Positions 510 through 61,867 are shown, counted from the stretch's first letter. The stretch: DNA of 64,000 nt from a virus (IMGVR_UViG_3300009873_000001), one strand, 5' to 3'. The notes: generated by a model from the sequence alone, not told the origin. Translations and numbers: made by a program.

Positions 510-1400
510 GTGGCTGACGTCAGGCTTCGCGAGCTGGGTCGACGCGCTCGAGCTGGGGATCAAGAGGCCGCGCTGCGGCTGATCAATGCCTGGGTCCGCA
601 GCGGGCAGTCTGCAGCGCCCATGGCCGCCATGGCCATGCAGCTCTTCGAGCGCGCCTTCGAGGACTGGACCAACCCGAAGATCCAGCCCCAGGGGGACTG
701 GGATCAGCGCGACCACGACGAGCGGCGCCGAGATCGGCACTTTCGTTGGCGCTACTGGCGCCTGGCCATGCACCCGAATTCGATCCCGTTCGAAAACCTC
801 GGTGTCGTCTGGCCGCTCGGCACTGCCCTCACGCCGACCGCCGAACAGCCGGAGTTCCGCGGCTTCACGGAGCGCATGGAGTGCCTCCTGGTGCGGGCCT
901 GGGACTGTGAAAGCTCGAAGCAGCTCGTGGAAGCCGCGGTGTTCGAGGCGCGGCTATTCGACGTAATCAACAGCATTGACCTGCGCGCGGGGCCGTGGTC
1001 TCCAGGCTATGCCACCCCGACATTGAATCGCGGCACGTTCGGGCTTGGAAACTGGCACCACCTGGAATACCGGCTTAGGCAAGCGTTGTCCGAGCGATTT
1101 TATGAATCGCAGGGCCTCGAGCCGCTCAGCGGGTGGGCTTTCGACTCGCCGTTCGAAGTGAGTATAGAACGCGGCGAGCAGGTCGACGTGCAGCACCTGC
1201 CGACCGAACGCGAGGAGTACGGCGCGCTGGTCAGAACCGGGCAACAACAAGCCGTCACGTTCGAGGTCACGCTCAGGATCGCGCACACGCTCGGGCCGGT
1301 CGTGATTCGCACGCCGCGACCAGAGCACCGCGGGCTGGAGAAGGACATTCGCGTACCCAATCCGATCCTGGCCATGCTCGTAGAGTTGGCGGCCAGCTAG
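510..1400 (+). CDS. hypothetical protein with N-terminal module A
   Basis: Starts MADVRLRELGRRARAGDQEAALRL; 296 aa. Confidence 0.8.
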   Translation: MADVRLRELGRRARAGDQEAALRLINAWVRSGQSAAPMAAMAMQLFERAFEDWTNPKIQPQGDWDQRDHDERRRDRHFRWRYWRLAMHPNSIPFENLGVVWPLGTALTPTAEQPEFRGFTERMECLLVRAWDCESSKQLVEAAVFEARLFDVINSIDLRAGPWSPGYATPTLNRGTFGLGNWHHLEYRLRQALSERFYESQGLEPLSGWAFDSPFEVSIERGEQVDVQHLPTEREEYGALVRTGQQQAVTFEVTLRIAHTLGPVVIRTPRPEHRGLEKDIRVPNPILAMLVELAAS

Positions 1401-1546
1401 TCGATCGGATCGATCTCCTCGGCGTCGAGCGTGTCGTAACCCAGCAGGCTGAACAGGAGCTCGGTCGACGGCTCGGCGTACTTGATCCCCGCGTTACGCA
1501 GGGTCCCGAGGAGAAGCAGGATCGATTCCTGGCTATTGGGGCGCAT
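1397..1546 (-). CDS. small hypothetical protein (49 aa)
   Basis: MRPNSQESILLLLGTLRNAG...; AGGAG RBS; stop shares CTAG with the convergent 510..1400 gene. Confidence 0.45.
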   Translation of the reverse strand: MRPNSQESILLLLGTLRNAGIKYAEPSTELLFSLLGYDTLDAEEIDPID

Positions 1547-1826
1547 GCAGCGTACTCCTACCTCTGTGGTAGCCTAGAGTTAGGAACCTGCCACAAAACG
1601 CTATGCCGCTCAGAAGGCCAGCTAGACCGCCAAGACCGCAGCTCGCCGCCAGGCCTCGCCTCCGCAGCTCGACGCCGCAGCGGGCCACGGCTCCGCAGCC
1701 AGCGCCAGACGCTCTGCCGCCACCCACCGAAGGGCAAAGAGAGGCCGGGAAAGCACTGCTGGTGGTAGCAGCCGGGCTGTGGATCTGGTTCGCGCTGGGC
1801 ATGCCAGGAGCGCCCAAGCCGACAAC

Positions 1827-1854
1827 CTGACATTGCGAGTTTTTGTGGTATTCT
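1827..1854 (+). promoter_or_regulatory. sigma70-like promoter, extended -10
   Basis: CTGACA-N16-TATTCT with TG upstream of the -10 (TGGTATTCT); same -10 at 47706. Confidence 0.45.
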
Positions 1855-1874
1855 CCGCCTCGGGGGGCTGCCAG

Positions 1875-2987
1875 TTGTCCAGCAAGCGCGTTCTCGACAG
1901 GATCCTCACCCCGGACGGTTTGGCACTCCTGCCAGACCCCAGCTACGAAGCCGCTCTCCGTCAGGCCGTGCCGGTGATCGCCGACGAGGCCGCGCGCTAC
2001 TACTACGAGGAGAGCGAAGAGGAGAACTGGGATCAGGTCGAGCAGATCCGCAACGTCGCTCCGCCCTACGACCTCATGTGGATCGAGTATCGCGCGCCGA
2101 AGTTCATTCGCTCGAACGTGTATGGCGTGACGCCCTGGAATCCCAGGCAGTACGTGCAGTCCGGCACGCTGTTCACCTACTCGGAGCCTGACGCCTTTCC
2201 GCCGCAGTTCATACAAGACTTCTCCCCTGACGCGCGCTGGATCGCCCAGGCGGATATCTTTCGCGTGTATCCGCCCGGGTGCGGCCCGCTGTCCGTGTTG
2301 GGAGACCCGGGGATCGACACCGAGCTACCGATCCTGGAGTGGTCGCTGTTCTACGCAGTCGGCCAGGACGGAAAGTTACTAGAGCAGACAGGCCCGCCAG
2401 CCCCGCCGATTCCAGGCCAGCCTGAGCTGCCGCAGTTCGCCGGCAAGCAAGGCGTCTTTCGCTCCGTTCCGCCCAAGCTGATCCGCGACATGTTCGGCTT
2501 CGACAACGAGTCGCTCTGGCGTGACCAGGAGGCGCGCGACAACTTCCTCATGATGGCCGGGAATCACATACCAGACTTGAACGTAGGCCTGCTCGCGCTA
2601 TACCTCATGCACAGCCGCGGGGCTCAACTCAAGACGCAGCACGTTCCAGAAGCTGTGCGCAGGAAGCGCGAGCGGCGCGGCAAGGCCGCGGGCGTCGTCT
2701 ACAAGGTGCTCGATATCGGCCTGCCCATGAGGCAGCCCCTCAAGGAAGCCAAGCGCGAAGGGCAGGGGCTCGAGCACGCGCTGCGCACGCACCTGCGTCG
2801 CGGCAACTTCGCCGTCTACACGCCCGAGAAGCCGCACGTCAGCGGCTACGTGGGCAGCATGTGGCGTCGCCCGACGGTCGTGGGCGCCGGGCCTGGCCGC
2901 GTAGAGAAGGTCTATCGGTCCAAGACGCCAGCCGAGATCCTCGAAGAGGCCGCTAGGCGCAGGCAGGAGCGGCGGCAGCGGTCCTGA
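1875..2987 (+). CDS. phage hypothetical protein, HxRRG-motif type
   Basis: Long ORF, probable TTG start; C-terminal THLRRGNFAVY...MWRRPTVVG resembles a common phage motif. Confidence 0.75.
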   Translation: MSSKRVLDRILTPDGLALLPDPSYEAALRQAVPVIADEAARYYYEESEEENWDQVEQIRNVAPPYDLMWIEYRAPKFIRSNVYGVTPWNPRQYVQSGTLFTYSEPDAFPPQFIQDFSPDARWIAQADIFRVYPPGCGPLSVLGDPGIDTELPILEWSLFYAVGQDGKLLEQTGPPAPPIPGQPELPQFAGKQGVFRSVPPKLIRDMFGFDNESLWRDQEARDNFLMMAGNHIPDLNVGLLALYLMHSRGAQLKTQHVPEAVRRKRERRGKAAGVVYKVLDIGLPMRQPLKEAKREGQGLEHALRTHLRRGNFAVYTPEKPHVSGYVGSMWRRPTVVGAGPGRVEKVYRSKTPAEILEEAARRRQERRQRS

Positions 2988-3037
2988 TTTTTTGTCCGCT
3001 CCACCGGCTCGTTCGTCTTGGTTGGTGGAGGTGCGCT

Positions 3038-4243: not shown

Positions 4244-4684
4244 GGGGACGAATTGGTATCGACTGAAAGGAGGAAGGAGATCGGTGCGCGCCGAGGTTGA
4301 TCGGTGGGACTCGCTAAAAGCCGATCAGATTCCATCTGCCAACGTCAACAACGTCAGCACCCCCGACTGGCTGAGCGACGAGTCGCTCGCGTCCTTCATG
4401 GACGCGGTCGAGTCCGAGCAGCTGGTCGCCGCGATCTAGTAGCAGCTAGATCGGCGAGTCCTGTGGAGCCTCCCGCCTCAGAGGCAAAGCAGGGCTGGGT
4501 CAGCAAATGAGGCTGGGTCGAAAGTCAGGCGACTGGACTGAGACCGAGATCATGTGACCGCTGGAGGCCGGATCTGGCGTTGAGCCCAGGCCGGCTTCGA
4601 GAGCCGCAAGGCAGCGCTCGACTACGCGCGTAGAGCCGCTTCTGAAACCTTGACAGGACCCGGGTTCGAACCCCGGCGTCTCCA
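4244..4684 (+). ncRNA. ssrA: tmRNA
   Basis: 5' GGGGACGAATTGGTATCGAC; 3' GACCCGGGTTCGAACCCCGGCGTCTCCA; acceptor stem with G3.U wobble and A discriminator; tag frame 4338-4439 (ANVNN...QLVAAI*) with stop in a hairpin. Confidence 0.93.
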
Positions 4685-4700
4685 TTCGCCCGACCGGCAG

Positions 4701-4788: not shown

Positions 4789-6309
4789 ATGCCTGGCCCA
4801 ATGTTTGAGTTCTTCCCGTTCTCTGGCGCGACGCCCGGTCCGACTGGCCCCACAGGCTCAGCTGGCTCTTCCGGCCCTACAGGACCAGCAGGCGGGCCGA
4901 CTGGCCCAGCAGGGCCAGCTGGACCGACCGGGCCAGCTGGCGGCCCGACCGGAGCCACCGGCGCTTCAGGAACGCCTGGACCGACAGGTCCGCCGGGCGG
5001 CCCGACAGGCCCGGCAGGCCCGACGGGACCCCCTGGAGCGGACGGCGCACAGGGGCCTGCCGGACCCGCTGGCCCTTCAGGCACAGACGGGCAGACTGGT
5101 TCAACTGGCGCCACGGGCTCTGTAGGGCCAGCTCTGGCTTCGCGCAGAACCTTCTCGCCTACACGCCTCGTGGCCGAGGGTGCCTCCATTCCAGCCACGC
5201 CTAGCTCCGTGCTCAACCTGGCCGACCTGAGCAACCGCGACCCGTGGGTCAATCTCGACGAGGTCTATTCCCTGTCGCGATTCGATCTGGTCGTAGCCAC
5301 CGAAGAAGGCTCGGTCACTCGCTATCCAGGTCTGAGCTTCGCCTCTCGAGTTGCTCTTCTGGCTTGGCTGAACGCAAACGTCCCCTCTGACGGCAGCGCC
5401 TTCCTGGCCTCGGCGACCATGACGGCCTGGGACGAAGTCGACCAGTCCATGCCGCCAGTCACCAAGGTGTGGGGCAAGAACGGCGCGCTGTCTCGCCTCA
5501 GAAAGAACGACTTCTACAAGAGCCCCAGCCGCGGTTATGTCGAGCTAAACTCCTGGCCTGATCTCGACGTCTTCCTTGCCGCGGCCTGGGAGGCGGTCTG
5601 GCCCGGCGACCCGCTGCCCTCTCCGCTCACGCCTGACGTCCGAGCTGCGTTCTGGTGGGCCAAGAACCGCCGGAACCTGTACGAGATCGAGAAGAGCTTC
5701 GGAATTCAACCGTCTTTCGGCAGAACGTCCCGCGCTGGTGCCGGCGGTCCGTTCGGACCTACCGGCACAGGTTTCAGCTGGGCCTATCAGTCGAGTGGAG
5801 ATCCGGCATACGGGATCGTCGATTCTTCCGGCGGCGGGTTTGTACAGGTTCTTCCGCTATCTCAGTTCAGGAGAGACAACCGAAAGATCTCTGACGCCGG
5901 CCGCAGCGCGGTGTTTCTGGCGCCCATTCAAGGCGGCGTGAACGAACGCGCGGTGTGGATCAAGCCGGTGGGGATCGACCAGATTTACCTCTCGTGGTTC
6001 GACCCGACGCTCTATCGAGCAGAGGCCATTGTCACGCCCAACATAGACGGCAAGCGCGAAGCGCGCGTCCTCACAGCCTCTCGTTCGCCGTCCGTGGTTC
6101 GGGACGCCTCCGGCGCCTTCACCAAGGATCAGTGGTATCGGGGCCAGCAAATTTCTGTTTCGCAGGGCGGGCACCGCCACGGGCCTGGGCGCTGCCACTT
6201 CTACCTGCGCGAGCTGGCCACGGGCAAGGTGAGCGAGCTCAGCACGGCCAGGGTCGAGTACCTCGACGACCGAACCCTGTCCGCCGGTATGGCACGCGTG
6301 GTAAGCTAA
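4789..6309 (+). CDS. collagen-like (Gly-X-Y) protein, possible fibre or surface protein
   Basis: About 100 aa of GPT/GPA repeats followed by a ~390-aa globular region. Confidence 0.85.
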
Positions 6310-10983: not shown

Positions 10984-11463
10984 TCATTCATGCGCCCAGC
11001 ACTCCCCACTGTGCCCACGCACCTTCCAGCAGGTCGGACAGTTGCCGGCCTTGGCCCGCTCTGGCATGGGATTGTCCGGCGACGGGTCGCCGCGCTTCCA
11101 TGGATTCTTGCAGCGCACCCCGTTCGCGTCTATGTCCTTGAACATGCGCCGCCAGTCGGTCACGCCCACCGTCGGCTGTATACACGTCGGGATCCTGAAC
11201 GGCTTCCCCTTGGGTATGTTTCGCTGGTAGCGAACCCTCACCGCGCCGTTCTTCCAACGCTTGACCTCCAGCACGCGGATCACCGGATCGTAGAGGTGGT
11301 CCGTGGTCAGCACCACGCGATCCCCTGGTCGCGGATCGATTCGAGGGTCGCGCCCATGGCGAGTCGACCAGGCAACCCACTGAGCCACGACAGCAGGATC
11401 CTCGCTGTTGAGCTTCTGGGAGCCGAGATCACGGACGGCGCGTCTGAATCTGGCGTCGCTCAT
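10984..11463 (-). CDS. module-A-like leader plus RDPRxDPxPGD domain
   Basis: MSDARFRRAVRDLG...RDPRIDPRPGD; paralogue of 34248..34643. Confidence 0.7.
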   Translation of the reverse strand: MSDARFRRAVRDLGSQKLNSEDPAVVAQWVAWSTRHGRDPRIDPRPGDRVVLTTDHLYDPVIRVLEVKRWKNGAVRVRYQRNIPKGKPFRIPTCIQPTVGVTDWRRMFKDIDANGVRCKNPWKRGDPSPDNPMPERAKAGNCPTCWKVRGHSGECWAHE

Positions 11464-11828
11464 CGGGTGTCTATGTTGTGGTCCCAAGGGAGCAATGGCG
11501 GCTCCGGCGTCGGCTTGAGCACTGGCGCCGGCTTGAGCAGCCAGTCCGCCAAGGCCGCCCTAGGAGTTGCTGACAATACGTCGCCGAGTTTGCCTACGAG
11601 TTGCTCGATCCCTCCCTTACCTGCAATGCGCTTCCCGCGCCGCTTGGCTAGAGCCGCGACCTCGTCCCAGCGCAGACTGTACATGTAAATTGACCCGTCA
11701 GGGTAGTTGCCCCACAGATCCACACCAAGTGGGCAGATCTGGGCTGTTCCGAACGGCTCAGCTGACTCCTTGGGCATGTTGACCGGCTGCCGCGGGCGCC
11801 TGGAAGGGCGGTGCTTCTTTTTGCTCAC
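11460..11828 (-). CDS. hypothetical protein
   Basis: Overlapping start/stop junctions on both sides. Confidence 0.65.
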   Translation of the reverse strand: MSKKKHRPSRRPRQPVNMPKESAEPFGTAQICPLGVDLWGNYPDGSIYMYSLRWDEVAALAKRRGKRIAGKGGIEQLVGKLGDVLSATPRAALADWLLKPAPVLKPTPEPPLLPWDHNIDTR

Positions 11829-12415
11829 TGCTGGACCTTGATCACCAGCTCGTAGTCCTCGCCAGCCGTGCCTTCACGGATCTCGGTTATCGTGCCGAGC
11901 CGCTGCGCCTTGCGCTTCAAGCTCTCGGCGTAGACGCCCTGCACGATCTCGTTCAGCTCCTGCGTGCGCTCCTGGTCGGTGTTTTCGAGCTCGTCGGTGA
12001 CTTCCTTCTGGAGCTGGCTCTTGGCCCGGCGGCGCTCCTCGTCGGTGATCTTGATCTGCTCCTGCAGCTCGGACTGTGCCTTCCTGCGCAGTTCGGCCTC
12101 GTTGTTGTGGTCGCGGTCGCCGCGGACCGACTTGGTCTCGGTGCGTTCGAGCGTGTGCTCCAGCTCGATCTCGGCCTCGACGGTCATGTCTTCGAGGTTG
12201 ATCGTCTCCTTCGCGTTTCCGCGCCGCTTCCGCCAGATCTTCTTGTTCTGGTGGTCCTGCCGCCATCCCTTCTTGGTCAGCTCTCCCTCGAGCACCTCGG
12301 TCTGCTCTTCCACGGAGACGATCGGCGTGAGCACGATCTTCTTCGTGGTCTTGTCCTTGGTGCGGATCTGCTCCCTCACGGAAGCCGACACCTTGATCAC
12401 GTAGCTCTGACTCAT
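11825..12415 (-). CDS. FtsH ternary system X5-like coiled-coil protein
   Basis: MSQSYVIKV...AESLKRKAQRLGTITEI resembles the MSRAYRIRV...AEALKRKAAxLG family (from recall). Confidence 0.6.
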   Translation of the reverse strand: MSQSYVIKVSASVREQIRTKDKTTKKIVLTPIVSVEEQTEVLEGELTKKGWRQDHQNKKIWRKRRGNAKETINLEDMTVEAEIELEHTLERTETKSVRGDRDHNNEAELRRKAQSELQEQIKITDEERRRAKSQLQKEVTDELENTDQERTQELNEIVQGVYAESLKRKAQRLGTITEIREGTAGEDYELVIKVQQ

Positions 12416-12624
12416 GGCGCTGGCCTCCTGTTCGTTGTGTAGACGGTCACGTCGTAGTCTACTGCCGTGATCCAGAAGGCGGCGTCGCAGTGAACGCAGA
12501 CCTGCTCGTCTCCTGCGCTCACCGGATCGCCGGTTATGTCGTTTGTTGCCCCGCAAGTTGGGCATTCGATCTCGTAGTCAGGGCCGCTCGTCGTGCCCTG
12601 GTTTGGCTGCGGCACCCGGCTCAT
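12412..12624 (-). CDS. zinc-ribbon protein
   Basis: CPTC...CVHC. Confidence 0.65.
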   Translation of the reverse strand: MSRVPQPNQGTTSGPDYEIECPTCGATNDITGDPVSAGDEQVCVHCDAAFWITAVDYDVTVYTTNRRPAP

Positions 12625-14039: not shown

Positions 14040-14927
14040 TCAGCTTGGTCGATCTTCTTCATTCAGGAGCCTTCCCCAAAGAGCCCGCCATGCAACTGCA
14101 GCCACGATCGGTACGACGCCGTTGCCGACGATCCGATATCGGTGAGCCCAATCGGCCAGCCCATGAGCCACTCCATGAAGGCCGGGTTGAGCCGCTGGCC
14201 GGCGTTCTGGAAATCGATCGAGGACGGCTCGCCAGGCGTCGTCGTCGTTGCTTCTGGGCGGAAAGACGGCCTCGGGTCGCGCCACGCCCGCGCCCAGCTC
14301 CAGAGGCTTGGGGTGCCAGCGCTCGGGCGCTCGAACTCCCCGCCCTTCCCGTTGATCCCGTTCTGGCTCGAACCGTAGGCCGAGGCGCTGGGCGTGGGAT
14401 ACATGCCACGCGACCAGGAAGAACCTCTCGCGCTCGTGGTGCGCGTCAGCGACGGCGTGCGCGGAAAAACAGTCCCATTCCGCAATCCACCCGCCTTGGG
14501 CAAGGTCGTCTTTGATCTCTTCGAGCCCTTTGCTGACGATCCCCGGGACGTTTTCGAGGAACAGCCAGGCTGGCTCGCACTCGGCGAGGATTCGCCGGAC
14601 GGCTGGCCACAGCCAGCGCTCGTCACTGGCTCCGCGGCGCTTGCCGGCCACGGATACGGCTGGACAAGGAATGCCCGCCACGACTGAATCCACGCCGCCA
14701 TGCCAGGAGCGTCCGTCGAAGGTCCACAGATCCGACCAAATAGGCGCTGGATCATAGGTTCCTTCTTCCATACGCGTAGCCAGGAGCTCGGCGGCTGCCG
14801 CGTCCCCTTCCACAAGGCATACCGGGCGAGCGCCTGGATTCGCCAGTCGGAATCCGAGATCGAGACCGCCTCCACCGGTGCAGAGGGAGAGGAAGGCTCG
14901 CGGGCTTGGAAGGGGAGGTAGAGCCAC
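14040..14927 (-). CDS. C5 cytosine DNA methyltransferase, catalytic (alpha) chain
   Basis: Motif I SLCTGGGG, IV GIPC, VI ENV, VIII HERERFF, X GNGV; no motif IX. Confidence 0.88.
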   Translation of the reverse strand: MALPPLPSPRAFLSLCTGGGGLDLGFRLANPGARPVCLVEGDAAAAELLATRMEEGTYDPAPIWSDLWTFDGRSWHGGVDSVVAGIPCPAVSVAGKRRGASDERWLWPAVRRILAECEPAWLFLENVPGIVSKGLEEIKDDLAQGGWIAEWDCFSAHAVADAHHERERFFLVAWHVSHAQRLGLRFEPERDQREGRGVRAPERWHPKPLELGAGVARPEAVFPPRSNDDDAWRAVLDRFPERRPAAQPGLHGVAHGLADWAHRYRIVGNGVVPIVAAVAWRALWGRLLNEEDRPS

Positions 14928-14929
14928 AC
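14063..14929 (-). CDS. overlapping-frame methyltransferase beta chain (TRD plus motif IX)
   Basis: Same strand, alternative frame; YPTP and RLNPAFMEWLMGWPIGLTD. Confidence 0.7.
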   Translation of the reverse strand: MWLYLPFQAREPSSPSAPVEAVSISDSDWRIQALARYALWKGTRQPPSSWLRVWKKEPMIQRLFGRICGPSTDAPGMAAWIQSWRAFLVQPYPWPASAAEPVTSAGCGQPSGESSPSASQPGCSSKTSRGSSAKGSKRSKTTLPKAGGLRNGTVFPRTPSLTRTTSARGSSWSRGMYPTPSASAYGSSQNGINGKGGEFERPSAGTPSLWSWARAWRDPRPSFRPEATTTTPGEPSSIDFQNAGQRLNPAFMEWLMGWPIGLTDIGSSATASYRSWLQLHGGLFGEGS

Positions 14930-14935
14930 GCTGTT

Positions 14936-28372: not shown

Positions 28373-29077
28373 GTGAGCGACGCCGAGGTCAAGCGCCTGT
28401 TTCGCAACTGGCTCGCCAACCAGACTCCAGAAAACGCCCAGCGCTACGTGACGGCGCTGGCTCGGGCGGGCGGCGACCTGCCCGGACCCGACACCGTCGA
28501 CTTCTTGCTGGAATCGGCGCGCGGAAGGCGCGTGCGTAAGATCGTAGCCGGAGCGCTTAGGCACTTCTTCGGCAAGACGACCAGGGAAGCGCTACGCGGA
28601 CAGCTCGAGCATCTAACCGAGGCACACTTCAACGAAGCCGGCCTTCGAGCAATCTCTAGCCTGAAAGACGTGCCGCCGTTGGGCATGGGCGACCTGCGCG
28701 AGTTTTACCGTGAGATCGGACTGCAGCTGAAGGAAGGCACGCAGCAGCAAGTCAGCGACGACTTGGCCGTCAAGCCTCGGAACGCTAGCGGTTGGAAGAC
28801 CGCGTTCTGTCAGCTCGATTGGGACTACCAGGCGCTCCGCGCCGAGATCGATCAGCTGCACGAAGAGAATCGCGTGCAAGGGCAGACGATCGTTCAGCTG
28901 CGCAATCAGCTCTCCAAAGAGGGCGGCCAAGGCGCCACGGTCGATATCCTCCGCCGCGAGAACGAGCGCTTGACCAAGATCATTCAGGGCCGCTCCTCTG
29001 GCGGCCCCTCAGCTCCAGTGCCCTCGCCATCTGCGCTTTCTCCTTGGGACCCTCTGCCAGCAGACGGCTCTCGGTGA
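28373..29077 (+). CDS. module-A-like protein with coiled coil
   Basis: MSDAEVKRLFRNW...QRYVTALARAG; GGAGG RBS. Confidence 0.75.
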   Translation: MSDAEVKRLFRNWLANQTPENAQRYVTALARAGGDLPGPDTVDFLLESARGRRVRKIVAGALRHFFGKTTREALRGQLEHLTEAHFNEAGLRAISSLKDVPPLGMGDLREFYREIGLQLKEGTQQQVSDDLAVKPRNASGWKTAFCQLDWDYQALRAEIDQLHEENRVQGQTIVQLRNQLSKEGGQGATVDILRRENERLTKIIQGRSSGGPSAPVPSPSALSPWDPLPADGSR

Positions 29078-30819: not shown

Positions 30820-31815
30820 ATGGACGCCAGGCTTCGAGAGCTCCACCGCGCCGCCCGGCTCGCTCGCGGCAAAGAGGCCGCCCGCCTCCGCGGCCAGCTC
30901 TGGAGCGCTTTGCTGGCCCTGGGTGTGTGGCCAGAATTCGTTCACCGCACGGCGCTGCAGACGGCCACGGAGGTGGCACAGTTCGCTTCTTGGTTGGGCG
31001 ACCTTGGCGCGCGCGAGTTCCTTCGTTCGGCAGGCGCTCAGGCCGCGTCGATCAAGGTCGGCGTCTCGCACGACTTGTTGCGCGGCGACTCCGTGCCCAC
31101 GCGCTGCAGTATCTGGTGCTGCGAACGAATGCTTCCGGTGATTGAAGAAGCAATGCCGGTAACGGCAGACCGGTCGGCCCCTGGCAGGGCGCTCGCCGAA
31201 TGCATGCAGGTCCAGCTAGCGGCGGAGGCCGAAGTCGAGCTGCGCGTGCCGTCTCGAGGGCGACCGCCGCTCTACAAGGCCGCCAGACACAACTTCGACC
31301 CGCACCTGCCCGGACTTCCTGCCACCACACTCCTCGAGCTGGGGAGCCTGCTGCAGGCAATCGGTTTCGAGGATACTGGATATCCAGGCCGCGCAGAAGA
31401 CCTAATGCACTTCGAGGTGCGGCGCGACTGGCCCAACGCGCTCCCAGGCGATCAGCAAGGCAGGGCGCGATTCACCTATGCTGCCGCCTTCGGGTTGATC
31501 GCGATCATGCGACTCTACGCCAGCGTTTTCAGGCGCAGCACGAGCGCGCCCTCGCACCAGATGGGCTACATTCGCGAATCGAGGCCGTTGCTCGAGCCAG
31601 CCAACATGTTCCTCAAGGTCGTTTTGCCTTTGTGTGAGACCGGGCTCTCTTTGACATATGCCAGCCAATCAGATAGAGCCTGGCTGTCTGCCGGGCGACA
31701 CGCCTGGGTCAGTCACGGCAGCGCAGCTGGCAAGAAACAGGCGCTCAAGGAACTCAAGGCGTTCATGCGGCAGCGATTCGTGCCGTGGGCCACTTCGGAA
31801 GTGGTGCCTGCGTGA
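30820..31815 (+). CDS. module A protein
   Basis: MDARLRELHRAARLARG; 331 aa. Confidence 0.75.
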   Translation: MDARLRELHRAARLARGKEAARLRGQLWSALLALGVWPEFVHRTALQTATEVAQFASWLGDLGAREFLRSAGAQAASIKVGVSHDLLRGDSVPTRCSIWCCERMLPVIEEAMPVTADRSAPGRALAECMQVQLAAEAEVELRVPSRGRPPLYKAARHNFDPHLPGLPATTLLELGSLLQAIGFEDTGYPGRAEDLMHFEVRRDWPNALPGDQQGRARFTYAAAFGLIAIMRLYASVFRRSTSAPSHQMGYIRESRPLLEPANMFLKVVLPLCETGLSLTYASQSDRAWLSAGRHAWVSHGSAAGKKQALKELKAFMRQRFVPWATSEVVPA

Positions 31816-32543
31816 AAGCCAACCGCAACGCTGACGTCCGCAGGCGCACCGCCGCCCGCGGCCTGACGCTCGAAACCACCGATCCGATTCTCTGGGAACG
31901 GAACGCCAGAGAAGCGCTGCGAGCTGGAGATCTGCCCAGTGCGCTCGTCAGCCTCGCCTTGACCAGGTGGTTCGCGCGCGACCTGCCGACCAACGAGATC
32001 CGTTACGGCCCGGTCAAGCACGGCGTCAGGCGCATGTACTCGGCCAGCCCTAAAGACGGCGTCGTGATCGGCCAGGACGTGTGCCTCTACACGCACCTGC
32101 CAGGGAAGGATCCGTTCGGCCTGGGCGAGAACCCACTCGCGGTGGAGCTATGGGAAGGGCGGGACGTGTACCTGCTTCATAGCCCGGCAACGCTCGTGGC
32201 GTGGGATCGCGACCGCCCAGAGGAGGCTCTTGACCAAAATGCCAACCCGCTGATCAAGCTGCTCAAGAAGAAGTGGCATGGCCGACAGCTGAAAAGCAAG
32301 TGGGTCTACTGCAAGTCTGGTGGGGTCAGCGAGATCAAGATCGTGCGCAGCAAAGACCGCATTTGGCTGGGCGGAGATTGCTCGCCTGACAAGCTCGTCA
32401 CGTATGAGGACGGCAAGCAGGAACTCGAGAATGACGAAGACGCGCTCTTGCTGTTTGAGAGCGAGTTCGCGCTCACGCTCGACCTTCACGCCCAGCTAGG
32501 CTGGCCGCTCAAGTCGTGGCGGCCAAGGCGGCGCAAGGCATGA
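31812..32543 (+). CDS. module-A-like protein
   Basis: MKANRNADVRRR...REALRAGD; GTGA overlap. Confidence 0.7.
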   Translation: MKANRNADVRRRTAARGLTLETTDPILWERNAREALRAGDLPSALVSLALTRWFARDLPTNEIRYGPVKHGVRRMYSASPKDGVVIGQDVCLYTHLPGKDPFGLGENPLAVELWEGRDVYLLHSPATLVAWDRDRPEEALDQNANPLIKLLKKKWHGRQLKSKWVYCKSGGVSEIKIVRSKDRIWLGGDCSPDKLVTYEDGKQELENDEDALLLFESEFALTLDLHAQLGWPLKSWRPRRRKA

Positions 32544-33112
32544 AGGCGCACAGGAACACCTCCGAAGACGAGCGACTCCGCCGCGCCGCACGCGAGGCCG
32601 GTCTCTCTGCGGAAAAGCTAGGCCGGCTGATCAGGGAGCTGGTCCGCGCCGGTCATGGCCCGCACCCGCTGAGCGACGAGTTGAGCCTCGATATCGAGGC
32701 GCGGGTCAGGCTCCTCAAACGGCGCGTCGAAAGAAGAGGCGAGCTCCACGACCACGAGATCACGGGCGTAGCCGACATGTTCGCTCAGTACGTCGTGCTC
32801 CTCGAGCAAGAAGACTACTGGCTCACAGGGCGACCCACTCAGCCATGGTCGCGAGTCGACTGCGTGGCGGCAGAGGAATCCGGCGCCTACGAGGACTTCT
32901 TCTGGGTCATAGGCGCCAGTGAAGGATTCGACGTCAGCAACGACGAAGACCGCGACATATGGTTCATAGATCTCTCCGAGCAGTCTGCCGACTACCAGCT
33001 CTTCCACCGTCGCCTCTACGCCACCGCGACCAAGCTCCATAGGCGCTGGCTGCGCGAGTTGGGCATAGGCCCCTTGCTGCGACCACAGCGGAGGAGGCGC
33101 CGTGCTGAGTGA
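32540..33112 (+). CDS. module A protein
   Basis: MKAHRNTSEDERLRRAAREAG...RELVRAG. Confidence 0.75.
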   Translation: MKAHRNTSEDERLRRAAREAGLSAEKLGRLIRELVRAGHGPHPLSDELSLDIEARVRLLKRRVERRGELHDHEITGVADMFAQYVVLLEQEDYWLTGRPTQPWSRVDCVAAEESGAYEDFFWVIGASEGFDVSNDEDRDIWFIDLSEQSADYQLFHRRLYATATKLHRRWLRELGIGPLLRPQRRRRRAE

Positions 33113-33758
33113 GCTGCACGAGAATCCGCCTGGCAGTGACGCCAGAATCGAGGCCCTGCGCCGTCAGGCCGAGTTGGGCGACCTGCAGGCTGCGACACAG
33201 CTCTACGTCGAACTCGCTCGGCGCGGCATGGCGCCCATTCCGATCTGGAACCGCTGCCAGGTATTCCGGGCCTATCTTGAAGAGGCGATCAGCTCGCTGC
33301 GGATGTGGAGCGGGAACTTCCAAAGAGATCCAGGCGCGATCGTCGTGGATAACCGCCGCGGCCAGTATTCGGTTCGGCACAGGGTCGACTGGCCATTCAG
33401 GCGCGCCCCAGAGACGGTCGAGCTGGCCTTCTTTCACCACAGGCCGCCAGCCGTCTTTGCTCACGACGACGGATTCTTCGCCGCCTTCCTGGAATCTCCT
33501 GTCACAACCTCCGAAGAGCGCTACGTGGCGGTGTTCTTGACCATGTACACCAACCAGCACGCCTTCCGCGACGTTGTCAGCCGCAAGAGGAACTACTACG
33601 GCAAACGCCTGAACTTCCTCTACGGCTTGAATCCAGACGCGCCCGTCCTAGAGAGCGGTAGAATCAACAGTAGCTGGCCGCGCGACGACACCGGCCGGCT
33701 CGACATGTTCAACTTGGTCTCAGACCCGACTATCCTCACTGAGTGGAGACGCCCATGA
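33102..33758 (+). CDS. module A protein
   Basis: ...SDARIEALRRQAELGDLQAATQL...RRG. Confidence 0.75.
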   Translation: MLSELHENPPGSDARIEALRRQAELGDLQAATQLYVELARRGMAPIPIWNRCQVFRAYLEEAISSLRMWSGNFQRDPGAIVVDNRRGQYSVRHRVDWPFRRAPETVELAFFHHRPPAVFAHDDGFFAAFLESPVTTSEERYVAVFLTMYTNQHAFRDVVSRKRNYYGKRLNFLYGLNPDAPVLESGRINSSWPRDDTGRLDMFNLVSDPTILTEWRRP

Positions 33759-34261
33759 AGGCTGACGTGCTCAAGCTAGCTGGCCTCGCGTTCTGCTGGG
33801 GCTACGCCAAGAGCCGCTCAGTCAACGGCGAGACCATGAAAAGCGACTGCGCCGATTCGATCTATCAGATGGCCAAGCACTCGGTCAGCCCCGGCCAGCT
33901 GATCATGAACGCCGGCCTCGGGCCACTGCAAGAGGAAATGCTGTTCCGCGCAGGGATCCAGCCCAAGATCGGCCTGGCACCCACAGCGGCCATATTCGGG
34001 GCCTTCCACATTCGTCGCATGGACGCTCAGAACGTCGCCCACGCCGCGGACGCTGGCCTGGGCGGATTGCTCTACGGCTTCGTCTACGACCACTTCGGCC
34101 TGGGCGCCTCGACCTTGGTCCACGGAGCCCACAACCTCGGCGTGGCGATCGGAACTCTGTTCTCTGCCAAGCAAGAGCTAGGGCGCCGGGTCAACGCCAA
34201 GAAGAGGGCCAATAACCTGCAGGGGCTTCCCAAGAAGCTCCGGCCGCTCAGGCGTCGCTAG
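33755..34261 (+). CDS. CPBP (CAAX/Abi/Rce1-like) intramembrane protease
   Basis: PLQEEMLFR, FGAFH, VHGAHN. Confidence 0.8.
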   Translation: MKADVLKLAGLAFCWGYAKSRSVNGETMKSDCADSIYQMAKHSVSPGQLIMNAGLGPLQEEMLFRAGIQPKIGLAPTAAIFGAFHIRRMDAQNVAHAADAGLGGLLYGFVYDHFGLGASTLVHGAHNLGVAIGTLFSAKQELGRRVNAKKRANNLQGLPKKLRPLRRR

Positions 34262-34643
34262 GCGCGTCTTCCGGCGCGCGCTCCTCGGCCATGCGCACGA
34301 CTTCTCCGTGGCGGGTCCGACGACGCCAAGTCTCAATGCTGCAGAGCGTGAAGCGCGGGTGATAGCAGAAGCCAGCGCCGTCTTCGGGTCCGTAGAGCCA
34401 AAGAACTCTGCCCCAGAGAACCTCCACGATCTCGCCTTGCTCGTTTTCAATGATCTTGCGCACAAACCGCGTGAACCGCTCGGGTCTGGCATGCGGCACG
34501 ATCTCTGTGCGCACGACGTCGCCAGGAACGGGATCTAGCCGCGGATCGCGCAGCCGGAGAAGCCCTGCACGCCAGCGACGCCGCGCTTCACGGTCGCCAG
34601 CTCTAGCACGGCGCTCGAGGTCGCGCAGACCCGCGTCGCTCAT
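34248..34643 (-). CDS. module A plus RDPRxDPxPGD domain protein
   Basis: MSDAGLRDLERRARAGDREA...RDPRLDPVPGD. Confidence 0.8.
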   Translation of the reverse strand: MSDAGLRDLERRARAGDREARRRWRAGLLRLRDPRLDPVPGDVVRTEIVPHARPERFTRFVRKIIENEQGEIVEVLWGRVLWLYGPEDGAGFCYHPRFTLCSIETWRRRTRHGEVVRMAEERAPEDAPSDA

Positions 34644-35194: not shown

Positions 35195-35788
35195 CTACAC
35201 GGGGCTGGCATGGGCAGCGACGCTCTTGTCGAGCCTGACCGTGAAGGCACGTATCGGCGGTTGCCCAGGGATCGGGTGCGGCATGGGCGGGCCGTCCTCG
35301 AACGCCTCCACAGCGTACTTGGACACGATCTTGAGCGACCCGTCTGGAGTGGGTGTGATCGTCGCCAGCAGGACCCCGTCTCGCTCCTGGACCTCGCAGA
35401 CGTCCACGTCTCGGATCTCATGCCGCCTGGCCACGAACTTCAACGGCAGGAGGACCGGAGCAGACAGCCGAAGGCCAGACGAAGCTGCACCGGTCGTGCA
35501 GGCTCCGCCGTCGTCCAGCTCCGGGTTGTTGGCCGCGCCTTGGAGGTCGGGCTTTTCGCGCGCAGTCAGCATGTCTTCGATCTGCTTCTTCGTGGCCTCC
35601 ACGTCCGGCCTGAGCGCGAGCGAGTTCATGATCGGCTTGCCGGTGGCCGGATCGTTGACCACGATCCGCGTGTAGCCGGACCCGGCCATGCCGTAGGTGT
35701 TCGGGCCGAACTGCGCTATGCACCGTTCCTGCTCGTCGCGCAGGGTGTGATAGCCCTCGCCGTCGTGACTCCACTGAAAACCGGCCAT
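35195..35788 (-). CDS. hypothetical protein
   Basis: GGAGG RBS; TAATG overlap with the methyltransferase stop. Confidence 0.7.
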   Translation of the reverse strand: MAGFQWSHDGEGYHTLRDEQERCIAQFGPNTYGMAGSGYTRIVVNDPATGKPIMNSLALRPDVEATKKQIEDMLTAREKPDLQGAANNPELDDGGACTTGAASSGLRLSAPVLLPLKFVARRHEIRDVDVCEVQERDGVLLATITPTPDGSLKIVSKYAVEAFEDGPPMPHPIPGQPPIRAFTVRLDKSVAAHASPV

Positions 35789-36726
35789 TAGGCCTCCTTC
35801 CACCGAGCGAGCGCGCGTTCGGCGCGCTTCCGGTCACGTTCCACACCGACCGCTGAGATGCCGAGCCGCTTGGCGACGACCGCGGTCTGGCCGGCGCCTA
35901 GGAAAGTATCTAGCACGACCTGTCGCTCTCCGCGCGCGGCAAGCCCGGCGCAGCCAGACACCTTCAGACAGCGCTCCACGAGTTCGGCTGGATACTCGTA
36001 GTCGTGGGCCTTCTTCTTGGTAGCGCCGGTAGTTTCATAGCCCACGACCCACACATCCCCACCGCAGCGGAGATTTCCGTTCTTCCCTCGAGTCCCTCTG
36101 GTCAGATTCGACTGATCCGCGAACGGCACGCCTACCGCCAGCCGGTCCAGCTCCGGCTCACCACCAAGAGCGGTCGGCTTGAAGGCCGTGAACAAGTGCT
36201 CCCAGGAGTAGTTGAGCAGGTTCGGGCTGTTCAGCGGCTGGCAGTGCCCACGGCAAGGTTGTCCAGGACCAGGCGAGTAACTCTTCACCCACGCGATCTG
36301 CTGGTGGGCGACCAGCGCGTCGTCCATGCCCAATGACCCGTTCAGGAAGCCGGAGAACGCCTTCCACGGGCGCAAGAAGTCTTCGCGAAGCTGGCCGAAG
36401 TTGAAGAACACCCAGGCGCCCGGCACGAGCGCGCGGTGTGCGAACTCGCCCACGGTCTGCATGAGCTCGTGATCGAACCCGTCGGCCTTCTTGTACGGCG
36501 GGCTCGTGACGAGCACGTTGGCCGCGCCGCCCTCTAACCAGCTCGAATCCCAGACCTCGCGCACGTCAGCTAGTGCGATCATGATGTTGAGATCGCCTTG
36601 CTGAGCTTCAAGGATCTCGAGCCGCGGATCACGCAGGCGAAGGAGACCTGCGCGCAAGCGCTGTTGCGCCTCGCGGTCGCCGGCTTTAGCACGGCGCTCA
36701 AGTTCTCGTAGGCTTGCGTCGCTCAA
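35788..36726 (-). CDS. beta-class N4-cytosine/N6-adenine DNA methyltransferase with N-terminal module A
   Basis: VTSPPY precedes VLDTFLGAGQT. Confidence 0.88.
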   Translation of the reverse strand: MSDASLRELERRAKAGDREAQQRLRAGLLRLRDPRLEILEAQQGDLNIMIALADVREVWDSSWLEGGAANVLVTSPPYKKADGFDHELMQTVGEFAHRALVPGAWVFFNFGQLREDFLRPWKAFSGFLNGSLGMDDALVAHQQIAWVKSYSPGPGQPCRGHCQPLNSPNLLNYSWEHLFTAFKPTALGGEPELDRLAVGVPFADQSNLTRGTRGKNGNLRCGGDVWVVGYETTGATKKKAHDYEYPAELVERCLKVSGCAGLAARGERQVVLDTFLGAGQTAVVAKRLGISAVGVERDRKRAERALARWKEA

Positions 36727-45707: not shown

Positions 45708-46043
45708 TCATGTCGACCGCCCGGCCGGCTTGCCGTAGACCCGAAGGTCGTCAGCGTCGACCCAGCCCTCGTTCAGCGCCGCAGCGCCGCGGTATTGGCC
45801 TTTCGTGATCTGGCCGGCGCCGTGCTCGACCTTGGCCAGCTTCGGATCGTGTGTGCCAGGCACGAAGCGCAGCCTGGCCGCGTGATCGCGGACTTCGAGC
45901 ACCTCATACGTGCCGTTCGGAATCGGCGGATCTGCGAACGTGCCGAGCAGCGGCGGCTTGGTCTGGAGATCCTCGAGCGTGTGATAGAGGAGCCAGCCGT
46001 GCAGAGCAGAGAGCTGGAAGCGGCTGCCAGCGGTTACGCGCAT
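45708..46043 (-). CDS. hypothetical protein divergent from the recombinase
   Basis: MRVTAGSRF...; plausible coding part of the 479-aa antisense ORF. Confidence 0.55.
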   Translation of the reverse strand: MRVTAGSRFQLSALHGWLLYHTLEDLQTKPPLLGTFADPPIPNGTYEVLEVRDHAARLRFVPGTHDPKLAKVEHGAGQITKGQYRGAAALNEGWVDADDLRVYGKPAGRST

Positions 46044-46148
46044 TGCTGTCGAACTCCCTGCGCATGGTACAGTCGGGGTTGAAGTTCCCAAACGCGGATT
46101 TTTAGGAACACGCCTAACTCGTTGTAACGCAATGCAGCATAAGGACTT

Positions 46149-56460: not shown

Positions 56461-56533
56461 GGGTCCGTAGTTCAACAGGCAGAACCTTCGGCTTTTAACC
56501 GAAACTGTGGGCGTTCGAGTCGCCTCGGACCCA
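56461..56533 (+). tRNA. tRNA-Lys(UUU)
   Basis: Acceptor GGGTCCG/CGGACCC; anticodon arm TTCGG-CTTTTAA-CCGAA; T-loop TTCGAGT. Confidence 0.92.
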
Positions 56534-58213: not shown

Positions 58214-58567
58214 TTGGAGGCGGTAGTGAATCAGCCGGTCAGCACGAACGACGAGACGCTGCGCGGGCCATTCCTGTGTCAGGGCACCAGGAGGCGCCGC
58301 GAAGCCGGCCTCGATTGCCATGCGGCCTGCTTTCCGGCAGTCGGCGTGTTGTGCGAGGACTTCTCCTTCCGTCCACTCCCTCTCGGCGACGGGTGGTTCT
58401 TCGAGATCGACCGCCGCGGCGATTCGAGCTACCCGCTTCGCCCGCTCGGCTACATGGACGTGAAGATGTGGTGTCCTGAATGCGCCCCTAAAGAACTCGA
58501 GCAACGAGCGGCCGGCGGCGACTTGAAAGCACGCGCGCAGCTCAAACACCGGCAGGAAACACAGTGA
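58214..58567 (+). CDS. hypothetical protein with C-terminal module-A-like segment
   Basis: Ends KELEQRAAGGDLKARAQL; start uncertain. Confidence 0.6.
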   Translation: MEAVVNQPVSTNDETLRGPFLCQGTRRRREAGLDCHAACFPAVGVLCEDFSFRPLPLGDGWFFEIDRRGDSSYPLRPLGYMDVKMWCPECAPKELEQRAAGGDLKARAQLKHRQETQ

Positions 58568-58824
58568 GCGACGAGCGGTTGAGGCGCGCTGAGCAAGCAG
58601 CCCGCGAAGGCGGGCCAGAAGAGAGCGCGGCCTATCTGCGCGAACTCATACGAGCTGGGCGAATCGACCCAGCAGCTGTGAAGATAGCCGCATTCTGCGG
58701 TCTCACGTCGGCTTCCATGGCGATCGAATGGCAGCCAGCACACGAACCTGGGGTGTGTGCCTGCCCTTTTGCTTCCTCCCAGACGGCGGGAATTTTCGTG
58801 CTTGGCTACGCAAGAACGTCATGA
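58564..58824 (+). CDS. module A protein (nearly module only)
   Basis: MSDERLRRAEQAAREGGPEESAAYLRELIRAG...AAFCG. Confidence 0.75.
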   Translation: MSDERLRRAEQAAREGGPEESAAYLRELIRAGRIDPAAVKIAAFCGLTSASMAIEWQPAHEPGVCACPFASSQTAGIFVLGYARTS

Positions 58825-58846: not shown

Positions 58847-59236
58847 GTGGATCGCCGCCTGAGAGAACTCGAACGCCTGGCAGAGACGGGTGACGCCGCG
58901 GCGAAAGAGCGACTCAAGCTCAAGCGCGACCGCGCCGGCCGGCCGGTCTTCACGCGCGACACCATGCCCGCCGGCTTGCGTTGCAGGGTGAAAGAAAACC
59001 TCTGCGCTCCGCACGGCTATGGCGCGGGCAGCTGGCCACCGCGATTCGTTCAGGCCGGGTCGCTCGTCGCGATCATAGGTCCGCGCAACACCGAGCGGCA
59101 CGGAAAACACAAGCGCCAGCAGTGGTACGACGTGGAGGTCTTCGGCAAGGCCGGCAACGTGATCGGTCGCACGTACCTTCCCAGCAACTGGCTCGAACCG
59201 GAGATCCCGTGGACGACGAACTCCAACGCGCCTTGA
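58847..59236 (+). CDS. module A protein with SH3-like region
   Basis: GGAGA RBS; MDRRLRELERLAETGDAAAKERL. Confidence 0.75.
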   Translation: MDRRLRELERLAETGDAAAKERLKLKRDRAGRPVFTRDTMPAGLRCRVKENLCAPHGYGAGSWPPRFVQAGSLVAIIGPRNTERHGKHKRQQWYDVEVFGKAGNVIGRTYLPSNWLEPEIPWTTNSNAP

Positions 59237-60307: not shown

Positions 60308-60710
60308 CCAAAGCCGTTTTCGAAGAACTCGTGAGCCGCTTCACGCCGTTCAAGCGCTACAAAGCCCGCACCCCTGACAGGTGCTGCTTGCTGAAATGCA
60401 CCCGCAGAATCGAGCGCGGCGACTTCGCCTTCAAGCCCACCAAGAACACGGGCGGATACACAAAAGAGGCGCGAATCTGCGACCCTTGCGGCCAGGTCCT
60501 AGCCATGGTGCAAGTATGACGCTCGAAGAGATCGAGGCCAAGGCGCGTCGCGGCGAGCCGGTCACGCCCGAAGAGGCGCTCTGGCTGATCTCCAAGCTCA
60601 AGAGCACCGAGGCCCGCGTGCAGGCCGAGGCCGAGCGAGCCGAAGAGTACCGCATGGCCGAGGTCTATAGTTTTTGCGCCGAAGCGGCGCGCAGGAAGCG
60701 AGGGAGCTGA

Positions 60711-61001
60711 ATGACAGATCACACCGTCGACCGCAAGAGGTTTCCCCACGAGCACAGCGACTGCTACGTGTCGGATCTCATGATCTGCGAGTCTGCCGCC
60801 GGCTACTACCTGGGCCGCATGTGCCAGGACAAGGAAGACGGCTTCGTGGAGCCGTACTCGCGCGAGAGCGACTACTTCGCTTCAAAGACAGAAGCGCGCG
60901 CGGCGCTGGCTGCTGGCTTCGAGGTCCGCGACTGTGTCGAAAATCAGCACGGCTATGCGACAGGCGCACTGCCCCCACCGCACCAGCCCGAGGACAACTG
61001 A
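60711..61001 (+). CDS. phage hypothetical protein
   Basis: SAAGYYLG...PYSRES.YF. Confidence 0.75.
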   Translation: MTDHTVDRKRFPHEHSDCYVSDLMICESAAGYYLGRMCQDKEDGFVEPYSRESDYFASKTEARAALAAGFEVRDCVENQHGYATGALPPPHQPEDN

Positions 61002-61002
61002 C

Positions 61003-61515
61003 GTGAAGATCGTGAGCGGCGGCCAGACCGGCGCCGACCGCGGCGCGCTAATCGCAGCCAAGCGGCTCGGCGTGTCTTACGGAGGGTGGATACCGCGCGG
61101 TCGCAGGGCCGAGGACGGGGTCATTCCGTTCGAGTTCGACCAACTTCAGGAGCACCCCAGCTCTGACTACCCGCCGCGCACCTACGCCAACGTGCGCGAC
61201 AGCGACGGCACGCTCCTGATCGCCCGACTTCCGCTTCGAGGCGGGTCTGACCTGACCCTGAGCTACGTGCGCGAACTCGACAAGCCGGTGTTCAGGCTCG
61301 ACGCCCAGACCGTCCTCGACACAGACGAGCACGCCTTTTTGGTATCGTCCCTGATCGAATGGACGACCGAGCAAGGAATCAAGACCCTGAACGTGGCCGG
61401 CTCCAGGGAGAGCAGCGTCAAGGGGCTGCAGGGCGCCGTGGCCGGCCTGATCATGAGGTTCCTGCGTGAGCGATCAGCGCCAACGCCAGCTCGAGCGCCA
61501 GGCGCGCCTCGGTGA
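61003..61515 (+). CDS. SLOG-superfamily cpYpsA ('putative molybdenum carrier') protein
   Basis: IVSGGQTGADRGAL...RTYANVRDSDGTL...LNVAGSRES. Confidence 0.88.
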   Translation: MKIVSGGQTGADRGALIAAKRLGVSYGGWIPRGRRAEDGVIPFEFDQLQEHPSSDYPPRTYANVRDSDGTLLIARLPLRGGSDLTLSYVRELDKPVFRLDAQTVLDTDEHAFLVSSLIEWTTEQGIKTLNVAGSRESSVKGLQGAVAGLIMRFLRERSAPTPARAPGAPR

Positions 61516-61867
61516 CAAGCAGGCCGCGCGGGCCGCGGAGCGCGGGCAAGAGCGCGTCAGCGGCCCTGGCGTGAAGCTCAAAGCTCTAGCTGAGCTGATC
61601 TACGCCAGCACGGGGCCGGCGGCAGGCGAAGAAACGCCTTGGGGATACCTGCAATCCGCCCACGCCAGGCTCACAGCTTGGTGCGAGGGCGGCCCGCACA
61701 AGAAGCAGCTACGCTGGGCGGCTGACGACCTCAAGAAGGCCGAGACCTCCATTTCCTACTACAGCCACGACTGGCCCTCTTCGTGGGGCGCGCACCAGCG
61801 CGCTTCGGCGGCGTTCTGGGAAGTCCTGCGCGGCTTGCAAGACATACTAGCGGAGTGCCGTACATGA
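61466..61867 (+). CDS. module A protein
   Basis: MSDQRQRQLERQARLGDKQAA. Confidence 0.75.
   Translation: MSDQRQRQLERQARLGDKQAARAAERGQERVSGPGVKLKALAELIYASTGPAAGEETPWGYLQSAHARLTAWCEGGPHKKQLRWAADDLKKAETSISYYSHDWPSSWGAHQRASAAFWEVLRGLQDILAECRT

Follow-up and report, generated by a model that had tools for sequence, protein, structure and literature searches.

A portable N-terminal helical module common to a large phage-like element and a subset of Planctomycetota

Introduction

Why should proteins that appear to have little else in common begin with the same short, charged peptide? The question is raised by a stretch of viral DNA of 64,000 nucleotides (IMGVR_UViG_3300009873_000001), referred to as a whole as the window, in which a first-pass annotation had pointed to an N-terminal element, module A, at the head of about 12 proteins, and had read it as a candidate targeting or docking system. 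In the analysis described here, module A is found to be a real, protein-level, portable N-terminal domain, which is common to a phage-like element and a subset of Planctomycetota and which has been grafted onto at least one enzyme whose relatives are without it. In kind it is a promiscuous helical adaptor domain, of a family new to curated libraries. The element to which the window belongs is treated throughout as a large phage-like genome, as its limited set of markers suggests (see below).

Module A in the window

Translation of the 12 claimed starts gives a recurring motif, which opens either with M-S/A or with basic-N-P/S and continues as D-x-R-L-R-x-L-E-R-x-A-x-x-G-D-x-x-A ... R-x-G. In the main test of this motif, the first 55 residues of each open reading frame (ORF) were scored against a hidden Markov model (HMM) of 186 modules, none of which is encoded by the window, and each N-terminus was shuffled 300 times within its own composition, the maximum score being taken as the control. 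Seven N-termini (510, 33102, 34643(-), 36726(-), 58564, 58847 and 61466) score 36-48 bits, against at most 10.9 bits for any of their shuffled counterparts. Two more are weak, yet stand above their shuffles (30820, 13.1 bits against 5.8; 32540, 12.6 against 7.5), the start at 28373 is marginal (10.5 against 9.4), and those at 31812 (6.3 against 10.8) and 11463(-) (4.4 against 5.8) are not supported. In other words, seven of the dozen members first proposed are solid and two are weaker members, one stays in doubt and two fall away. An HMM of the 'ERRW' variant described below rescued neither 28373 nor 11463. When a profile was made from eight window copies, no further strong match was found among the 1,257 six-frame ORFs of the window, the best score over 20 residue-shuffled versions of all 1,257 being 12.2 bits. 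Moreover, leave-one-out scoring with window sequences alone clearly recovers the copies at 510, 34643(-), 36726(-) and 61466, at 20-33 bits.

The 510 protein, a 296-residue ORF at 510..1400 (+) with cargo of unknown function, has a GTG start and carries its module at 510-632 (47.9 bits; shuffle maximum 10.9). Its orthologue P0203, 53% identical over the cargo, keeps the module behind an MRQRRRN leader, which argues that the module is a maintained part of the protein. The 218-residue ORF at 33102..33758 (+), identical to the database protein P0008, has a leader ending E-N-P-P-G-S followed by the module at 33129-33251 (42.0 bits; shuffle maximum 7.8; 39.6 bits with a broader HMM). On the other strand, the 131-residue ORF at 34248..34643 (-) has its module at 34521-34643 (40.2 bits; shuffle maximum 5.2) and a cargo that clusters with those of P0034 and P0091, both of them module-bearing database proteins, and a 312-residue N6/N4 DNA methyltransferase at 35788..36726 (-) has its module at 36604-36726 (42.2 bits; shuffle maximum 6.9), with a TTG start coupled to the upstream stop. 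The 86-residue ORF at 58564..58824 (+; module 58564-58686; 43.0 bits; shuffle maximum 9.7) continues into a second hairpin motif, I-A-A-F-C-G, and the protein aligns with a bacterial family of module plus L-A-A-Y-L-G in which such a second hairpin is typical. It is followed by the 129-residue ORF at 58847..59236 (+; module 58847-58966; 45.3 bits; shuffle maximum 10.5), which has a GTG start, while the 133-residue ORF at 61466..61867 (+; module 61466-61588; 36.4 bits; shuffle maximum 7.0) is identical to the database protein P0015. The only copy in the window that is not N-terminal is a half-module (E-L-E-Q-R-A-A-G-G-D ...) at 58493..58549 (+), which lies at the C-terminus of the ORF at 58214-58567 and scores 15.5 bits (E = 7e-4 within the window).

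Of the two weaker members, the 331-residue ORF at 30820..31815 (+) has a degenerate module at 30820-30936 (12.3-13.1 bits), in which the first helix alone matches and A-R stands in place of the G-D turn; the 190-residue ORF at 32540..33112 (+) has a divergent module at 32558-32680, behind a basic leader, MKAHRN, that is like the basic-N leaders of other members, and it reaches 25.6 bits with the broader HMM. The marginal member is a 234-residue ORF at 28373..29077 (+), which scores 6.2 bits with that HMM. Both unsupported candidates, a 243-residue ORF at 31812..32543 (+) and a 159-residue ORF at 10984..11463 (-), lie below their own shuffle maxima, the former having in common with its tandem neighbours only a VKANRN-A-D leader and the ending '...LRAGDLP'. 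The three tandem, overlapping genes at 31812-33758 (+) open with similar short leaders (VKANRN, MKAHRN and ...HEN), each of which precedes a module or an N-terminus resembling one, and look like units split out of a multi-unit protein.

Each supported copy lies a few codons from an upstream in-frame stop or has a coupled start (TTGA, GTGA or tgaATG), from which it follows that the window copies are truly N-terminal. With regard to the level at which the module is conserved, 66% of the codon pairs at residues identical between two modules differ synonymously, and the mean nucleotide identity is 49%. Such divergence points to selection on the peptide, the repeat being conserved as protein, and a DNA-level repeat was rejected on the strength of these synonymous differences.

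Cargo and the methyltransferase

The claim of a portable module on cargo of unrelated kinds has been borne out, in that the window cargo with the module removed has no pairwise BLASTP similarity, every pair standing at E > 0.4. Only one module cargo in the window, that of the ORF at 35788-36726, has a family match; this is to PF01555 (E = 3e-14; 54 bits against a cut-off of 26.7), such that the DNA methyltransferase named among the cargo at the outset is indeed one. In an alignment of this protein with 40 homologues the (S/D)PPY motif, S75-P76-P77-Y78, is invariant. The module, however, is absent from all 40 of these closest homologues, the nearest of which is 60% identical, and all of them start differently; module-less homologues of a cargo, which the earlier reading had proposed to look for, therefore exist. 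In an AlphaFold2 (AF2) model of the methyltransferase, with a mean predicted local distance difference test score (pLDDT) of 92.5, predicted helices at residues 3-14 and 18-31 precede a confident methylase fold. A PHROGs scan of the cargo of nine module proteins gave no match. In the databases, the best 150 hits of the family search described below, when cut at their modules, give 242 units that fall into 192 BLASTP cargo clusters.

These results bear on whether the module genes might be nothing other than paralogues whose C-termini have diverged beyond recognition, or whether the shared segment might be an element of DNA or RNA (a translation leader, say, or a site of recombination). Some observations lean that way, since a leader common to the tandem genes at 31812, 32540 and 33102 could mean that they arose by old duplications, and since some cargo clusters do exist. 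Against common descent, one cargo is a PF01555 methylase with 40 module-less closest relatives and the bacterial cargo spans unrelated Pfam folds, while the codon divergence given above speaks against a nucleic-acid element. Either account is, on this evidence, highly improbable.

Distribution of the family

When 1.84 billion representative proteins were searched with a module profile, 344 matched at E <= 1e-3, and the module family amounts to hundreds of 50%-identity clusters in metagenomes. Among the best 150 of the 344 matches, 94 have one copy exactly at the N-terminus, 46 have 2-6 copies at a spacing of 100-300 residues, and 10 have a single internal copy. The proposal that the module is strictly N-terminal consequently needs restating: it stands at the start of each protein or unit, but the 46 multi-copy proteins show that it is not confined to the start of the polypeptide.

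Module A, at ~35 residues, is a domain family uncatalogued in Pfam, NCBIfam and the PDB. Scans of ten window proteins against Pfam and NCBIfam gave no match over the module, the NCBIfam scan of 120 modules at E <= 10 gave only scattered single matches, and the full-length bacterial members have no Pfam match over residues 1-60. In a sequence profile search of the PDB the best match was to 13 residues of a designed HEAT-like protein (E = 0.12), with Sel1 proteins at E = 5.9, and a Foldseek search of the PDB with the bacterial family model returned nothing at E <= 0.001.

Protein databases probably under-count the module, as gene calls can omit it. The public gene call for the 510 ORF, P0201, has 259 residues rather than 296, since it begins at an internal ATG 37 codons too late and the module is missed. 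A word-index search with residues 1-42 of the 510 protein found no match, not even the 510 protein itself. In this regard, a module profile would correct missed gene starts of the P0201 kind and would help to delimit units in giant ORFs.

Bacterial carriers

A link between the module and Planctomycetota, which the first-pass annotation had mentioned, is substantiated by the genomes. In species-representative genomes, a pattern scan located the module at four loci, three of them in metagenome-assembled genomes (MAGs) labelled Planctomycetota, with a G+C content of ~75%. Three MAGs of 7-10 Mb, two labelled Planctomycetota and one an uncultured bacterium, carry at least 36-44 copies each, which are scattered across many contigs with some local clustering of module genes; among 121 evenly sampled Planctomycetota genomes, five are module-positive. 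The bacterial copies are N-terminal and start M-S-D. The 12-kb neighbourhood of one copy (L005) contains genes for a D-Ala-D-Ala ligase, a GNAT protein, an AMP-binding enzyme and a pyruvyl transferase, and is ordinary chromosome with housekeeping genes.

The commonest bacterial architecture, of ~200-250 residues, consists of the module, a second hairpin (L-A-A-Y-L-G) and an all-helical domain; other bacterial cargo includes a metallophosphoesterase (Metallophos_2), a biotin/lipoyl domain and WD40-like repeats. An 'ERRW' sub-variant, in which L-E-R-R-W-R/K-E-T/S-G-S-x-x-D-E replaces L-E-R-x-A-x-x-G-D, is common in the bacterial MAGs and is also found in the multi-unit proteins of contig L002 (see below); it occurs at L005:7538-8116 (-) and L007:2265-2618 (+), and also in L033, L035, L037 and L040.

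The bacterial copies bear directly on the suggestion that the module is a capsid-loading or ejection signal, or a secretion signal, of the kind exemplified by the T4 capsid targeting sequence (CTS). What makes such a signal attractive is that the module is N-terminal and portable and stands on anti-restriction-type cargo such as a DNA methyltransferase. Dozens of dispersed copies in MAGs, however, head ordinary cytoplasmic-type domains, the module is without hydrophobic or twin-arginine signal features, internal copies exist, and the window's own module genes lie in accessory blocks. We do not think that the module is a virion-specific packaging signal, since many copies are in bacterial genome bins, one of them among housekeeping genes; the capsid-loading idea thus fits poorly, and signals of this general kind appear very unlikely.

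Fold and conserved positions

The module reads as a two-helix hairpin, in the order helix cap, helix, G-D-P turn, helix and Gly cap, where the capping residues are S/N-P followed by D, the G-D-P of the turn and a final G. Each of D, R, L-E-R, A, G-D, A and a late R is found in more than 90% of the aligned copies, and the charged positions are so placed as to allow inter-helix bridging. The possibility of a lambda N-type arginine-rich RNA-binding peptide was rejected, as the module consensus is nearly charge-balanced. A single two-copy complex prediction for the module, which scored 0.01, speaks neither for nor against self-association of the kind known from docking domains such as the RIIa/DPY-30 four-helix bundle.

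In the AF2 model of the bacterial family (mean pLDDT 86.8), the module is predicted at pLDDT 95-98, within four N-terminal helices that are followed by a low-confidence linker after residue 60. The only structural neighbour of this model in the ESM Atlas spans residues 67-206. The weak linker, together with a neighbour limited to the region beyond it, points to the N-terminal helices being a separate unit and, as modelled, to an autonomous hairpin.

Autonomy of this kind might, however, be all that there is to explain. In such a case module A would be a very stable capped hairpin whose part is to cap the N-terminus of an alpha-helical (Imm5-like) family, to space it or to nucleate its folding, and that has been shuffled between proteins as a domain with no partner or addressing role. 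The conserved positions can all be read as helix caps, as part of a small hydrophobic stripe or as possible salt bridges between the helices; in the bacterial family the second hairpin follows directly, all four helices standing at pLDDT 95-98; there is a weak resemblance to the hairpin motif 'G-D-P-E-A..L' of HEAT/alphaRep and Sel1 proteins; and in multi-unit proteins the module has a spacer-like position between domains. It is difficult to see, though, why, in bacteria and viruses alike, a spacer should retain more than 90% conservation at D, R, L, E, R, A, G, D, A and R, and a spacer is not expected before folded enzymes whose relatives do without it, nor to be kept in orthologues of 53% identity. 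A purely structural role is, accordingly, possible but doubtful.

Multi-unit proteins and Asn-Pro junctions

Long ORFs in which the module recurs are found on the related contigs L001 and L002 and on contigs from Hainich groundwater. The module likewise recurs in P0001, a protein of 1,058 residues with six junctions; a 1,058-residue gene adjoins that of P0035 on a Logan contig from SRR6032603, and P0035 is also encoded on a contig of 273,580 bp, the length likewise of the contig that carries the database copy of one window protein. Internal copies almost always stand behind basic-basic-N followed by P, S or G. Thus, of 67 internal copies, 41 have N at position -2 and 59 have P, G, S or A at -1, and across 51 multi-module proteins an Asn lies within six residues upstream in 121 of 133 modules. 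NP dipeptides in multi-module proteins number 179, against 52 expected (3.5x). About half of them are spaced at ~55-150 residues with no module behind, as if punctuating domains, and these module-less NPs also stand after basic residues. N-terminal members, for their part, start M-S/A/T or have a short basic leader ending in N, with 15 of them starting M-D. On L002:1-19864, nearly every gene overlaps its neighbour by 4 nucleotides and starts M-R-R-Y-R-S/R-N-A-D-E. In the cargo clustering, the same cargo families appear in separate proteins with a single module and, elsewhere, inside multi-unit proteins, and the occurrence of cargo in both settings argues that the shuffling unit is the module plus its cargo.

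Two readings of the basic-Asn-Pro junction offer themselves, a site of cleavage and a plain helix N-cap (N-P-D-E). The former gives rise to a proposal that overlaps with the other readings as an addition to them, namely that a protease, or self-cleavage driven by the Asn, cuts multi-unit proteins at a basic-Asn-(Pro/Ser/Gly) junction. The released units would then start small-residue-Asp-Glu, as M-S-D proteins do after removal of Met, and the module would be a processed N-terminal end. The enrichment of Asn before modules, the excess of NP at domain-like spacing, the leaders of the N-terminal members, including the repeated gene start on L002, and the existence of the same cargo in fused and separate versions are all in keeping with such processing. 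Set against these, N-P-D-E and S-D-E are classic helix N-capping boxes, so that the junction may be purely structural; and Met would stay on the 15 members that begin M-D. Processing is, on balance, unlikely. Nevertheless, the Asn-Pro-punctuated proteins are the most unusual loose end of the analysis, and if their junctions are processing sites they would imply polyprotein-encoding bacterial viruses.

A possible docking role

The reading that we prefer, albeit tentatively and at rather less than even confidence, is that diverse proteins use the autonomous hairpin as one shared handle for docking to a host-lineage factor, where both the docking and a Planctomycetota host are what we infer. The home of module A would be a subset of large-genome Planctomycetota, with dozens of copies in each; the phage-like element shares the domain and, through domain shuffling, would have added it to many of its accessory proteins, the DNA methyltransferase among them; and in related viral contigs module-plus-cargo units are strung into long proteins, with the basic-Asn-Pro junction opening each unit. 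The hairpin would in this way act as a protein-protein docking element for the host-lineage factor, plugging diverse viral cargo into a host system.

Several points weigh against this docking role. Most of the cargo is of unknown function, such that no shared pathway can be read from it. For each near-invariant residue there is a structural explanation (helix cap, small core residue or possible inter-helix salt bridge), and therefore an external binding surface need not exist. The bacterial context comes from one neighbourhood (L005), and the G+C content is 64% in the window against about 75% at the module-rich MAG loci, which leaves the host assignment loose. Support for the element being a virus is confined to PHROG matches for an integrase, a collagen-like tail fibre and a methylase, together with the tmRNA and two tRNAs.

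Whatever its role, the module belongs to an uncatalogued family that some Planctomycetota carry in dozens of copies per genome and that is met again in a phage-like element of 273.6 kb. If module A is a docking handle, its partner would be a lineage-specific cellular hub, one which a huge phage puts to use with many effectors simultaneously, and the hairpin would be a ready-made bait for finding that hub. A more far-reaching and improbable conjecture is that a group of very large uncultured bacterial viruses make polyproteins of dozens of unrelated units that are cut at the Asn of basic-Asn-Pro, each unit bearing at its start the hairpin, itself taken from or held in common with a system specific to Planctomycetota, and docking on one host hub. 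If true, this combination of polyprotein and address tag would be a strategy not known in bacterial viruses.

Other genes of the window

The window has a G+C content of 64% and is dense with short, mostly unannotated genes. The sole sequencing run to match the stretch in a sequencing-run search is an activated sludge metagenome. Comparison of the window DNA with phage records gave no match, and scans of IMG/VR gave nothing either, whether the query was the 510 protein, the module alignment or an exact 41-mer.

A full-length transfer-messenger RNA (tmRNA) gene lies at 4244-4687 (+), which matches Rfam RF00023 at 96 bits and on which ARAGORN made no call. Genes for tRNA-Thr (TGT) at 22728-22799 (+) and tRNA-Lys (TTT) at 56461-56533 (+) lie amid accessory genes. 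A tyrosine integrase is encoded at 46149-47183 (+) (phrog_1, E = 3e-23); a 479-residue ORF at 45708-47147, which overlaps it on the opposite strand, is probably spurious. The first ~120 residues of a 506-residue protein at 4789-6309 (+) match collagen-like tail-fibre PHROGs, with E down to 6e-18, matches which repeat composition may drive.

A second DNA methyltransferase, at 14040-15008 (-), is without module A (phrog_363, E = 2.5e-46). A protein at 11825-12565 (-) has an fvmX5 domain ('FtsH ternary system domain X5'; PF20003, E = 3e-25) and adjoins the unsupported module candidate at 11463(-). A calcineurin-like phosphoesterase at 40436-41143 (-) is likewise without the module (PF00149, E = 2e-11), although a bacterial relative from the same superfamily (L011) does bear it.

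Comparison with known systems

Short N-terminal signals that direct phage proteins to the capsid are known from the CTS of T4 IPIII and, reportedly, from P1 DarB, the T4 signal being removed by the prohead protease. Module A resembles these in being a short N-terminal element on otherwise unrelated phage proteins. The T4 and P1 signals are phage-specific, however, whereas module A is predicted to be a folded domain, has many copies in bacterial genomes and is also found internally.

In asparagine peptide lyases (the N/PTH site of FlhB/YscU and the N/P site of reovirus mu1) an Asn-Pro is the scissile bond of a self-cleavage. What is shared with these, and with polyvalent and polyimmunity proteins, is that the relatives of the window proteins include long, many-unit proteins with conserved Asn-Pro junctions. 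The junction basic-basic-N-P-D-E stands at a helix start and is unlike NPTH, and no similar fold was detected.

A further comparison is with the Imm5 and Imm5_like families (PF14423 and PF21805), inasmuch as the commonest bacterial partner domain is all-helical and gives borderline or sub-threshold matches to their profiles. Such matches occur in three of 23 bacterial family members, at E values of 1.4e-6 to 1.5e-5, and the L005 protein, which matches over residues 87-161 only, falls just short of the cut-off of 25 with 24.9 bits; a Pfam scan of the window proteins gave no match to either family. The bacterial module family is also expanded to many paralogues per genome and is found in multi-domain strings. 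In this regard it recalls the 'polyimmunity proteins' described among the immunity proteins of polymorphic toxin systems (Zhang et al. 2012, PMC3482391). The match begins at residue 87, after the module, which is to say that the module lies outside the Imm5 profiles, and in the window only the 58564 protein has the bacterial-type continuation, the other cargo, including the methyltransferase, not being Imm5-like. No toxin gene was found near the module copy at the one locus looked at, the L005 neighbourhood.

The domain TIGR02996 (rpt_mate_G_obs) is also similar in outline, being a ~45-residue N-terminal 'repeat-companion' domain with a G-D-P turn that heads many different proteins in Gemmata and its relatives. 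Membership of this family was rejected, as none of 120 modules matches it at E <= 10 and there are no matches to it in the three module-rich MAGs. In 121 Planctomycetota genomes its profile (cut-off 29.05 bits) made only two weak, TPR-like matches.

There is also a likeness to the TPR, Sel1 and HEAT_PBS repeats, with which the module has in common two antiparallel helices of ~12-14 residues, a tight G-D-P turn and small contact residues; indeed, the motif 'G-D-P-E-A..L' also occurs in designed alphaRep (HEAT-like) and Sel1 proteins. There is nevertheless no significant profile match to these repeats, and the module stands singly at the start of a unit, forming no tandem solenoid. What sets it apart from TPR, Sel1 and HEAT is its own invariant pattern of D, R, L-E-R and R.

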